Positions 39,259 to 63,997 of a stretch of 64,000 nucleotides of DNA are shown here, in pieces. Source of the DNA: Klebsiella sp. RIT-PI-d (GTDB lineage Bacteria > Pseudomonadota > Gammaproteobacteria > Enterobacterales > Enterobacteriaceae); contig NZ_LGIT01000001.1 in the NCBI RefSeq assembly GCF_001187865.1, positions 42,554-106,553 on the forward strand, given 5' to 3'. The notes under the pieces were generated by a model. That model made no database searches, had not been told where the DNA came from, and was given only the letters and a program-made list of their open reading frames with translations. The translations under genes and the position numbers were made by a program. Within the stretch, counting starts at the first letter, position 1. Each line of letters starts with the position of its first letter.

Positions 39259-39550
39259 ATCAATTTCCCTTCATTGAATGAATGGAGGTGCCTGAAATAT
39301 CCAGGCGGGTTCGAGTATACACAACGCGAATTGCGGGGAAATAATGAGGAAATAGCGGATGGTATTAACTTAAATTTGGGAAAAGCACATCGATTAATTA
39401 AAATAACTCTATTAATCAATAAATAACAAAAACGTAAATATACGGTTATTCCTAAAAAAAAAGAATGTGATTACTGATGCAGTAATTATTTTCAGATTAT
39501 GCTCAGCACCCGCATTCTCATATTATTGGCTGCAAGAAGAATCATCTGAT

Positions 39551-39581
39551 AAAAAAATACCGGCATCTCGCCGGTATTTTC
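39551..39581. terminator. pgi terminator, bidirectional (A7-TACCGGC-atctc-GCCGGTA-T5)
   Basis: Perfect 7-bp stem flanked by A-run and T-run 13 nt after pgi stop. Confidence 0.65.
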
Positions 39582-39593
39582 TAATGATATATA

Positions 39594-44100: not shown

Positions 44101-44420
44101 AGTGTTCCTTTATCTATCAATGCCGGGGCGGGTGCAGCGGCGAAGTCGTCGGGAAATCGCCACACACTGCCTGACGATTTTGCCGACAACCCGGCAGCAT
44201 TACCGGCTCCGGCCTGAGGCGATCCTGACTGCGGATCGCCGGGTATTACGGATATAAACAACCAGTGTTCACCTGAAGGGCGAATGCGGGAATCGAACCC
44301 GCGTTAACCATTTTTTCGCGTATGTCTTTCCGCTGGCGGAACGCGTCGTGGATAACGGCCTGTGCCGTTCCCGAAGCGCCGGCGGGGCTGATATCCCCTG
44401 CGTAACCCGGCGTGCTGACT
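44101..44420 (-). ncRNA. Candidate structured ~320-nt 5' leader / ncRNA downstream of sigma-54 promoter containing a tRNA T-arm mimic (GCGGG-TTCGATT-CCCGC at 44286-44302) and several GC-rich hairpins (e.g. GGCGATCC-gcagtca-GGATCGCC at 44218-44241)
   Basis: Perfect 5-bp T-stem plus canonical 7-nt T-loop TTCGATT on the minus strand; no matching full tRNA; unusually long GC-rich untranslated region between promoter and ATG. Confidence 0.3.
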
Positions 44421-44581: not shown

Positions 44582-46165
44582 ATGCAAAAGCGGCGGGTGG
44601 TCATCGGCGTAGTGGGAACGGTACTGGATAAACGCGGGAAGCGCGCTAATCGCTGGGCAAAATGGCGGCCTACTGTCGGACTCTGCCAGCAGCCGGACCT
44701 GCCCGTTGATCGTCTGGAGCTGCTTTATCAGGCCAAAGATCGCGGCATGGCGGAGCAGCTGAGTGCAGATATCCGCGACGTATCTCCGCAGACCGATGTA
44801 CAGACACACACGGTGGCGATTGACGATCCGTGGGACTTTGAAGAGGTGTACGCCGCATTTCTCGATTTCGCCCGCCACTACTCTTTTGATACTGATAACG
44901 AAGAGTATCTGGTGCATATCACCACCGGGACCCACGTGGCGCAGATTTGCTGGTTTTTGCTGACCGAGGCACGCTACCTGCCCGCCAGCCTGCTGCAAAC
45001 CGGCCCGTTAAAAAACCGCGATGAGGAAAATAGCGCGGCCGGAACCTATTCGGTTATCGATCTCGATCTCAGTCGCTACGCCACGCTTACCAGCCGTTTT
45101 CAGCACGAACAGCAGCAGTCCGTCTCGTTTTTGAAAAGCGGGATTGATACCCGAAATCCTGCGTTTAACCGTACGATCGCTCAGATTGAGCGCGTGGCCC
45201 TACGTTCAGATGCGCCCATGTTGCTGACGGGTCCTACCGGCGCCGGCAAGTCTTTCCTCGCCAAACGTATCTATCAGCTGCGTCAGTCGCGGCATCTGGT
45301 CGCCGGAAAACTGGTGGCGGTAAACTGCGCAACGCTGCGCGGTGATAACGCGATGTCGACACTATTTGGTCATGTGAAAGGTGCCTTTACCGGCGCGCTT
45401 CAGCCGAGAGCCGGACTACTACGTGAGGCCGACGGCGGGATCCTGTTTCTGGATGAGATTGCAGAGCTGGGGCTGGATGAACAGGCCATGCTGCTGAAAG
45501 CGATAGAAGAGAAAACCTTCTTCCCGTTCGGCTCGGATAAAGAGGTGCGCAGTGATTTTCAGCTTATTGCCGGAACCCATCGTGATATGCCAGCGTGGAT
45601 AGCTGAAGGCCGCTTCCGGGAAGATCTGTACTCGCGTATTAATATGTGGAATTTTGCCCTGCCGGGGCTGGCGGAGCGGCGGGAGGATATTGCGCCTAAC
45701 GTAGAGTATGAATTGCAACGTTTTGAGGCGAACCACCAGACGCGCGTCCGCTTTGATAAAGAGGCCCGTGACCGCTATATCAACTTTGCGCGTTCTCCTC
45801 AGGCGGTCTGGCGAGGTAATTTCCGTGAGCTGGGTTCTTCTGTTGCGCGCATGGCAACGCTTGCCGAACAGGGACGGATCAGCACAGAACTGGTGGCGGA
45901 AGAGATTGAGCGGCTGAAACAAAACTGGCACCCTGCCACGTCCAGTATTGTTCCGGTCCTGAGTGAAGAAATCGACCTCTTCGACCAGAGCCAGCTGGAA
46001 ACGGTCATTCGCGTCTGCCGTCAGTGTCAGTCGATTTCAGAAGCCGGAAGGCTACTGTTTGCCGTCTCGCGACAGAAAAAAAGTAACCCCAATGATGCCG
46101 ACCGCCTGCGTAAGTACCTCGCACGCTTTGGGCTAAACTGGGAGCGTATACAAGACCTTTCTTAA
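44582..46165 (+). CDS. RtcR-family sigma-54-dependent activator (N-terminal CARF-like domain, AAA+ sigma-54 activator domain with GAFTGA, C-terminal HTH), 527 aa
   Basis: Collinear similarity to E. coli RtcR (WxKWRPT..., HITTGTHVAQICWFLL, GPTGAGKS, GAFTGA, C-terminal DADRLRKYLARFGL); no rtcBA nearby. Confidence 0.85.
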   Translation: MQKRRVVIGVVGTVLDKRGKRANRWAKWRPTVGLCQQPDLPVDRLELLYQAKDRGMAEQLSADIRDVSPQTDVQTHTVAIDDPWDFEEVYAAFLDFARHYSFDTDNEEYLVHITTGTHVAQICWFLLTEARYLPASLLQTGPLKNRDEENSAAGTYSVIDLDLSRYATLTSRFQHEQQQSVSFLKSGIDTRNPAFNRTIAQIERVALRSDAPMLLTGPTGAGKSFLAKRIYQLRQSRHLVAGKLVAVNCATLRGDNAMSTLFGHVKGAFTGALQPRAGLLREADGGILFLDEIAELGLDEQAMLLKAIEEKTFFPFGSDKEVRSDFQLIAGTHRDMPAWIAEGRFREDLYSRINMWNFALPGLAERREDIAPNVEYELQRFEANHQTRVRFDKEARDRYINFARSPQAVWRGNFRELGSSVARMATLAEQGRISTELVAEEIERLKQNWHPATSSIVPVLSEEIDLFDQSQLETVIRVCRQCQSISEAGRLLFAVSRQKKSNPNDADRLRKYLARFGLNWERIQDLS

Positions 46166-63877: not shown

Positions 63878-63997
63878 ATGCCTGGCAGTTCCCTACTCTC
63901 GCATGGGGAGACCCCACACTACCATCGGCGCTACGGCGTTTCACTTCTGAGTTCGGCATGGGGTCAGGTGGGACCGCCGCGCTAGTGCCGCCAGGCA
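63878..63997 (-). rRNA. rrfE: 5S ribosomal RNA (rrf; rrnE-equivalent by synteny with yjaA/metA), complete 120 nt; rest of operon lies beyond window end
   Basis: Reverse complement reads TGCCTGGCGGC...GGGAACTGCCAGGCAT, the enterobacterial 5S rRNA sequence. Confidence 0.9.

Follow-up and report, generated by a model that had tools for sequence, protein, structure and literature searches.

A divergent rtcR gene, a leader and a slipin gene

The 64-kb window (the whole stretch of DNA that was analysed) contains a compact locus in which a regulator gene diverges from a promoter, a leader and a single structural gene.

44582..46165, plus strand: rtcR, encoding a CARF and sigma-54 AAA+ activator, divergent from the leader; matched by Pfam RtcR and Sigma54_activat and by the PADLOC RtcR model
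44446-44431, minus strand: sigma-54 promoter TGGCACGCTTCTGGCA, with GG at 44445-44444 and GC at 44433-44432; predicted transcription start at about 44420
44420-44098, minus strand: structured leader RNA, 323 nt, between the sigma-54 promoter and the slipin gene
44111-44105, minus strand: Shine-Dalgarno sequence AAAGGAA of the slipin gene, unpaired in the predicted fold, as is the start codon
42961..44097, minus strand: slipin (SPFH/Band-7) gene, 378 aa, downstream of the leader; neither rsr nor rtcB

The RtcR protein scores 834 bits against the NCBIfam equivalog model RNA_repair_RtcR, whose cut-off is 650. On sequence grounds, TGGCACGCTTCTGGCA fits the -24/-12 consensus beside this divergent equivalog, and the same 16-mer, or the form TGGCACG-N4-TCGCA, is found at an equal distance from the slipin gene in orthologous loci. 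An RtcR-type promoter upstream of the leader had been proposed in a sequence-only reading of this DNA, and that proposal stands. Judged by promoter and regulator, the leader and the slipin gene are predicted to form an RtcR/sigma-54-dependent transcription unit. The operon ends with slipin; the convergent gene lysC, on the other strand, comes next, and neither RtcB nor RlaP is encoded anywhere in the 64-kb window. The rtcR gene, the promoter and the slipin open reading frame are all intact. The slipin protein has no transmembrane segment and appears soluble, with the cage-forming SPFH fold; AF2 modelling used a 60-sequence alignment, a run with nine close homologues having given a pLDDT of 44. 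In several genera the orthologous operon is closely followed by the lysC leader, a lysine riboswitch (L002:8636-8829, L007:8575-8808, L009:8796-8991), which places the island at the same lysC-adjacent chromosomal site as in the window.

A minimal tRNA mimic in the leader

Near the middle of the leader is a tRNA-type T-arm with several flanking elements, some of which are alternatives to one another.

44319-44315, minus strand: 5' acceptor-like strand GCGAA, pairing with UUCGC at 44284-44280 (5 bp)
44314-44303, minus strand: D-loop-like linker AAAAUGGUUAAC, 12 nt, stemless, with a conserved GGUU
44302-44286, minus strand: T-arm GCGGG-UUCGAUU-CCCGC, a perfect 5-bp stem with a canonical 7-nt T-loop
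44285-44279, minus strand: 3' acceptor strand AUUCGCC, with alternative partners upstream or downstream
44284-44268, minus strand: closed "acceptor" hairpin UUCGCC-CUUCA-GGUGAA, 6 bp, the alternative to the open pairing
44266-44258, minus strand: ACUGGUUGU motif after the closed hairpin, nearly invariant and apparently unpaired

The T-arm and the ATTCGCC that follows it are exactly as the earlier reading gave them. Searching both strands of the 64-kb window for a perfect 5-bp Watson-Crick stem with a TTCRANN loop returned this T-arm and no other, and dinucleotide shuffles contain a mean of 0.07 motifs of this type per window. At E <= 10, the leader matched one Rfam model, that of tmRNA, through a local alignment to the T-arm consensus (18.9 bits; gathering score, 47); the tRNA (RF00005), Y RNA and yrlA models, to which the earlier reading had pointed, gave no match. 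ARAGORN found no tRNA and no tmRNA in the window, and in 5,426 E. coli genomes megablast found nothing that matches the leader.

That no complete tRNA can be assembled here had been noted, on the grounds that the D-arm, the anticodon arm and a matching 5' acceptor strand are all missing. This is correct for the D-stem and the anticodon arm, but a matching 5' acceptor strand does exist, the GCGAA at 44319-44315. A canonical tRNA was rejected, there being no ARAGORN or RF00005 match and no tRNA parts beyond acceptor, GGUU linker and T-arm. The element also has no CCA, and its acceptor helix is only 5 bp long; in Erwinia the corresponding stem has 7 bp (TGCGAAG/CTTCGCA). A GGUU-containing linker of 10-15 nt is found in the open-acceptor forms of Enterobacterales. 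For the window element, the closed form has a computed energy of -15.4 kcal/mol against -11.7 kcal/mol for the open form, and is thus favoured by 3.7. Covariation in the closed hairpin is modest (9 double-change cells versus 5.0 in shuffles, 4/500, among 12 relatives), and RNAalifold places no stem at ACUGGUUGU.

The leader is conserved as a structured RNA

Outside the tRNA-like element, a consensus fold assigns two further domains and a hairpin to the leader.

44411-44332, minus strand: 5' domain, a three-way junction, from RNAalifold and pair counts
44411-44407 with 44336-44332, minus strand: P1, compensatory changes present
44401-44395 with 44387-44382, minus strand: P2 hairpin, compensatory changes present
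44371-44366 with 44343-44338, minus strand: P3, no compensatory change
44240-44218, minus strand: 8-bp hairpin GGCGAUCC-GCAGUCA-GGAUCGCC (as DNA, GGCGATCC-GCAGTCA-GGATCGCC)
44211-44124, minus strand: 3' domain, a long irregular hairpin; 16 of 22 pairs with compensatory changes
44211-44202 with 44133-44124, minus strand: outer stem of the 3' domain
44195-44179 with 44156-44140, minus strand: inner stem of the 3' domain

The leader has a folding z-score of -2.66. Across 18 enterobacterial leaders, the 42 pairs predicted by RNAalifold are formed in 96% of cells, and 24 of them change on both sides, compared with 10.2 +/- 2.0 in shuffled alignments (0/500) and 3-8 when the partners are slid. Comparison with Superficieibacter separates the leader from its surroundings: the two leaders are 84% identical, while identity is 49-51% at the 4-fold degenerate sites of slipin and rtcR and 62% in the spacer upstream of the promoter. 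Conservation of the leader so far above that of the 4-fold sites and the spacer, together with covariation, argues for purifying selection on the leader as an RNA. The additional strong hairpin reported earlier at 44218-44241 corresponds to the 8-bp hairpin at 44240-44218, whose stems covary in Superficieibacter, Franconibacter, Siccibacter, Enterobacter, Erwinia and Lonsdalea.

The helix formed by GGAACG (44371-44366) in the RNAalifold structure shows no compensatory change, so the fold of that part of the 5' domain is unsettled; GGAACG may pair with a proximal CGUUAUCC or with the distal CGUUCC (44343-44338). A covariance model built on the enterobacterial 5' domain, R1, matched outside its seed only Xenorhabdus (E = 4e-6) and, weakly, Dechloromonas (E = 0.14). 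Because R1 recovers so little, homology of the 5' domain beyond Enterobacterales consists of motifs recognized by eye, such as a P2 hairpin followed by CYGGYGC, and an extension of the domain past that order is only suggested. We found no published description of the leader's 5' and 3' domains.

Two other explanations for a conserved leader were considered and rejected. A terminator-based attenuator does not fit, as prediction gave no intrinsic terminator on the leader's minus strand. Small leader open reading frames do not fit either: transcription is predicted to start only past the beginning of the 59-aa frame, and Superficieibacter lacks the ATG of this frame.

The T-arm accompanies slipin genes in several lineages

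A search for orthologous loci found about 580 slipin loci overall; the set of 81 used here is the window plus 80 orthologous loci, one genome per species, from Enterobacterales, Burkholderiales, Pseudomonas, Neisseriales and other lineages. In 80/81 loci a T-arm precedes slipin by 180-420 nt and has the same orientation. A divergent upstream RtcR accompanies 70/81, the window included, and of the 72 loci whose downstream sequence is long enough, 55 have RtcB after slipin and 49 have the RlaP nucleotidyltransferase. The RNA-slipin pair therefore makes up the invariant core of the system. By these counts its linkage is near-obligate, persisting where RtcB, RlaP or RtcR is missing. The Franconibacter orthologous locus has both RtcB and RlaP.

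The T-arms themselves vary in the way expected of a paired structure. Among 67 distinct T-arm sequences, GGUUCGA..CC is invariant and the outer pair of the T-stem is seen as C-G, G-C, U-A and A-U; the same sequences contain 49 double-change cells in the T-stem, against 15.9 in shuffles (0/500). The alignment of orthologous regions that the sequence-only reading had called for thus bears it out, with the T-arm in 80/81 loci and covarying stems. By position and covariation, the T-arm mimic is best regarded as a module of a conserved, structured RNA downstream of an RtcR-type sigma-54 promoter, as had been proposed. The other possibility raised at that time, a relic of a degraded tRNA gene left as an integration scar, is refuted by the same positional conservation and covariation across four orders.

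A Providencia species retains RtcR, slipin, RtcB and RlaP, with no recognizable T-arm in its leader (L021:3692-4000). Arrays of ordinary tRNA genes often come just before slipin loci that have no divergent RtcR (L043:51-1384, with eight such genes; L048:2463-2804; L075:2226-2842; L052:1627-1701).

Forms of the tRNA-like RNA by lineage

The tRNA-like RNA ranges from complete to minimal. In Pseudomonas, two complete tRNA-like genes, recognized as tRNA by ARAGORN and by Rfam RF00005, lie upstream of slipin. Most beta-proteobacteria have a 42-57-nt "mini" element with a complete tRNA-like gene directly after it, while Snodgrassella and Gilliamella have one complete copy. The beta-proteobacterial mini element consists of a covarying 6-7-bp acceptor, a short linker and a T-arm; its acceptor stems were read from direct pairing tables, since the MAFFT alignment of the 26 elements had the 5' strands out of register. 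NCCA follows 13 of the 26. With this NCCA and direct abutment of the next element, RNase P cleavage of the second element would leave a CCA-ended minihelix. Examples of mini elements that abut the next tRNA-like gene are L046:3589-3636, L060:3628-3674 and L075:3582-3638.

The complete copies do not look like decoding tRNAs. Their anticodons differ between close relatives, and many have "anticodon" loops of 6 nt, such as CGAAAG in Burkholderia and CUUCGG in Pseudomonas, with others of 8-9 nt (non-decoding loops are found, for example, at L033:3652-3724, L057:3566-3710 and L054:3603-3744). From these features, we conclude that the complete copies do not decode. The 6-nt loops and the unconserved anticodons indicate that the elbow and acceptor part is what is selected.

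Enterobacterales have one mini element only, in either of two topologies. In the open topology, seen in Franconibacter, Mangrovibacter, Erwinia, Proteus, Providencia and Xenorhabdus, the 5' strand comes first, then the GGUU linker, the T-arm and the 3' strand, which ACC often follows. The closed topology, seen in Citrobacter, Klebsiella, Enterobacter, Phytobacter and Yokenella, has lost the 5' strand and linker by deletion; its T-stem has 3-4 bp, and its 3' strand is part of a downstream hairpin of 5-6 bp. This hairpin covaries, occurring as UUCGCC/GGUGAA, UUCAUU/AAUGAA, UCACC/GGUGA and UUCACU/AGUGAA, and is followed by the nearly invariant ACUGGUUGU. Both pairing options are available in the window and in Superficieibacter. 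The window element can accordingly be read as a predicted hybrid, in which the 3' acceptor strand may pair upstream, as in a tRNA, or downstream, in the closed, YrlA-like manner.

Relation to known RNAs

In 2016 Burroughs and Aravind reportedly proposed that SPFH/Band-7 and Ro/TROVE proteins are cofactors with a scaffolding role and that each is paired with its cognate non-coding RNA. The slipin loci assembled here are the Band-7/RtcB/b7a-tRNA system, of which P. aeruginosa PaFlo8/PA4582 is a member; deletion of PaFlo8, the P. aeruginosa orthologue, gave no phenotype in standard assays. As described in a preprint by Wang et al. (2018, 10.1101/312249, citing Burroughs and Aravind 2016), the neighbours of RtcB in some bacteria are a Band-7 protein and a non-coding RNA known from prediction, named the "band 7-associated tRNA" or b7a-tRNA. 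The same account states that, by prediction, b7a-tRNA strongly resembles a real tRNA, that YrlA is occasionally found beside a Band-7 protein, and that the b7a-tRNA class was without experimental validation as of 2018 (Wang et al. 2018, 10.1101/312249). We found no later report in the literature that validates it.

The window leader resembles b7a-tRNA in setting and in parts. It lies directly upstream of a Band-7/SPFH gene and is co-oriented with it; it has the RtcR context and a tRNA-derived T-arm and acceptor; and its position matches that of the tRNA-like genes of beta- and gamma-proteobacterial loci. Of the repair-locus context, the window retains RtcR and has neither RtcB nor RlaP, whereas orthologous loci such as that of Franconibacter have both. 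Unlike b7a-tRNA, however, the window element has no cloverleaf, D-stem or anticodon arm and is invisible to ARAGORN and Rfam as a tRNA; its acceptor can close on itself, and the element is set in a longer, covarying leader. Because it does not resemble an authentic tRNA, strictly speaking it is no b7a-tRNA, and it corresponds instead to the mini element. It is best read as a putative reduced variant of b7a-tRNA-like RNA, a known but still hypothetical class. Among known RNAs this class is the nearest precedent, and the sequence-only reading does not mention it.

The parallel with YrlA drawn in the sequence-only reading is apt as far as Salmonella rsr-yrlBA-rtcBA is concerned. Like YrlA, the window element lies in an RtcR-controlled operon, has no free CCA end, and presents a canonical T stem-loop with a closed acceptor-like stem-loop immediately after it, an order that is circularly permuted. 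Identity with YrlA or Y RNA nevertheless fails. A YrlA is expected within about 4 kb of an rsr (Ro60/TROVE) gene on its strand, and the window operon has no such gene. The Rsr-binding motif GNCGAAN0-1G, expected near the 5' end, is missing from the leader's transcribed strand, the single GGCGAAG of the region being on the opposite strand, and in place of the GG-containing D stem-loop that comes after the acceptor stem-loop of YrlA there is just the conserved ACUGGUUGU. The Rfam yrlA family (used in PMC9569102) had no match in the window leader at E <= 10, or in seven related leaders at E <= 5. The closing "anticodon" stem that a YrlA-like fold would place around the T-arm and the closed hairpin is without covariation support in the window element; such a stem appears in single-sequence folds from Citrobacter, and RNAalifold does not support it.

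The tRNA-like domain of tmRNA, or an acceptor/T-arm minihelix of a tRNA, offers a further comparison: an acceptor helix, a T-arm and a stemless, GG-containing analogue of the D-loop are common to all, the window T-arm sequence equals the tmRNA consensus, and NCCA occurs on the beta-proteobacterial mini versions. The window element differs from tmRNA in having no pseudoknot, no tag-ORF body and no CCA, and in its acceptor of 5 bp. A tmRNA was rejected, as only positions 346-363 of the model match, the score is far below the gathering score, and ARAGORN reports none. The vault particle, in which a major vault protein with an SPFH-like shoulder is accompanied by vault RNA, is an analogy only.

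A proposed RNA partner of slipin, and alternative explanations

We consider it probable that the leader is a conserved, multi-domain RNA with a minimal tRNA-mimic core, driven by RtcR together with a soluble slipin and serving as the cognate RNA partner of that slipin. RtcR of Salmonella is activated by tRNA fragments, and tRNA damage would by extension activate RtcR here. To judge from its promoter and regulator, the leader-slipin transcript would then be made and would supply slipin as well as its RNA partner. Either intact or after processing, the RNA would present a tRNA elbow and acceptor surface to slipin or to tRNA-binding enzymes, and could act as the cognate partner of an oligomeric slipin scaffold much as Y RNA does for Ro60, a role suggested by co-occurrence. 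RlaP extends damaged RNA 3' ends by one or two nucleotides, and RtcB ligates. The present locus has lost both, keeping just the mini RNA element. A repair-cofactor role therefore cannot apply locally, and the slipin-RNA pair would act either without RtcB and RlaP or with enzymes encoded elsewhere. Several facts count against a partner role: the 5-bp acceptor with no CCA, the T-stems of 3-4 bp in the Citrobacter/Klebsiella clade, the Providencia locus with no T-arm, the absence of RtcB and RlaP, and the phenotype-free deletion of PaFlo8.

A bolder version of the partner role, which we think unlikely though worth stating, makes the RNA and slipin a self-sufficient module that needs neither RtcB nor RlaP, a soluble, vault-like SPFH assembly whose RNA subunit is a mimic of the tRNA elbow and acceptor. 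The hybrid would be a living intermediate on the way from the tRNA type to the circularly permuted, closed-acceptor Y-RNA type, possibly a two-state switch; the hybrid state is suggested by the ability of the 3' acceptor strand to pair upstream or downstream and by a GGUU motif on both sides.

Other explanations would confine the RNA to its own transcript or turn it toward other targets. It is rather improbable that the module and its flanking domains are a cis-only 5' untranslated region with no function as a free RNA, governing how stable the slipin mRNA is or how it is processed or translated, for instance through recruitment of RNase P or RNase E. The RNA does always lie between promoter and slipin gene, with no predicted terminator on its strand, and about 13 nt separate the end of the 3' domain from the Shine-Dalgarno sequence; but that sequence and the start codon are unpaired in the predicted fold, there is no attenuator-like alternative with a terminator, and the complete tRNA-like genes at homologous positions, some with an encoded CCA, look like products rather than switches. 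Also improbable in our view is a tRNA decoy that competes with tRNAs for a tRNA-targeting toxin, or a feedback ligand of the RtcR CARF domain that tunes induction. The sensing of tRNA fragments by RtcR, production of the RNA only when RtcR fires, and a proposal made elsewhere that YrlA is a competitive inhibitor of an anticodon nuclease all favour such a role. Set against them, the window element has no anticodon arm, the full versions, with their often 6-nt, tetraloop-like "anticodon" loops, would be poor baits for anticodon nucleases, and the near-obligate linkage is with slipin (80/81) rather than with RtcR (70/81).

Explanations in which the T-arm has no present function fare worse. That the operon is being lost, with RtcB, RlaP and the full tRNA-like gene already gone and the T-arm a leftover, could account for a window with RtcR, leader and slipin only, for a short acceptor with no CCA, and for eroded T-stems in related genera, yet we hold it to be quite improbable: rtcR, promoter and slipin frame are intact, the window T-arm is perfect, leader identity with Superficieibacter is 84% where 4-fold sites reach 51%, and compensatory changes occur throughout. 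That the hairpin arose by chance, or is a scar of integration at a tRNA or tmRNA gene, is excluded by the comparative data for all practical purposes. The local Rfam match to the tmRNA T-arm could be read in its favour, as could the expectation of about 0.07 such motifs per window; however, the element occupies the same place in the operon in four orders, with covarying stems, and the list of open reading frames around the locus shows neither a flanking direct repeat nor an integrase context.

Significance and further observations

The role of tRNA-like RNAs in bacterial RNA-repair operons, YrlA with Ro60 and b7a-tRNA with Band-7, is the question that this locus addresses. Together with the window, the Citrobacter, Klebsiella, Enterobacter and Franconibacter loci offer a minimal version of the class in genetically tractable hosts, in which the RNA-slipin partnership is directly testable without the repair enzymes. 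The loci form a natural reduction series of genes, from slipin-RtcB-RlaP through slipin-RlaP to slipin alone, and a parallel one of RNAs, from the full tRNA-like form through the acceptor/T-arm mini element to the closed, permuted form. The series suggests that the T-loop/elbow and slipin are the indispensable parts. It also offers examples, at the level of sequence, of a route by which tandem tRNA-like genes could give rise to a circularly permuted tRNA mimic.

Some orthologous slipins, in Xenorhabdus, Snodgrassella, Gilliamella and some Burkholderia, are extended at the N-terminus by about 150 aa that match nothing in Pfam (L027:3977-5554, L035:3944-5563, L037:3274-4881). In the Providencia locus described above, a WYL-HTH gene follows RlaP (L021:7257-7955). 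A scan of viral contigs for slipin returned a single locus, probably bacterial. Elsewhere in the window, Rfam matches at gathering level were found for the enterobacterial sRNA STnc430 (39428-39588, plus strand, 53 bits) and for 5S rRNA (63880-63995, minus strand, 91.5 bits).
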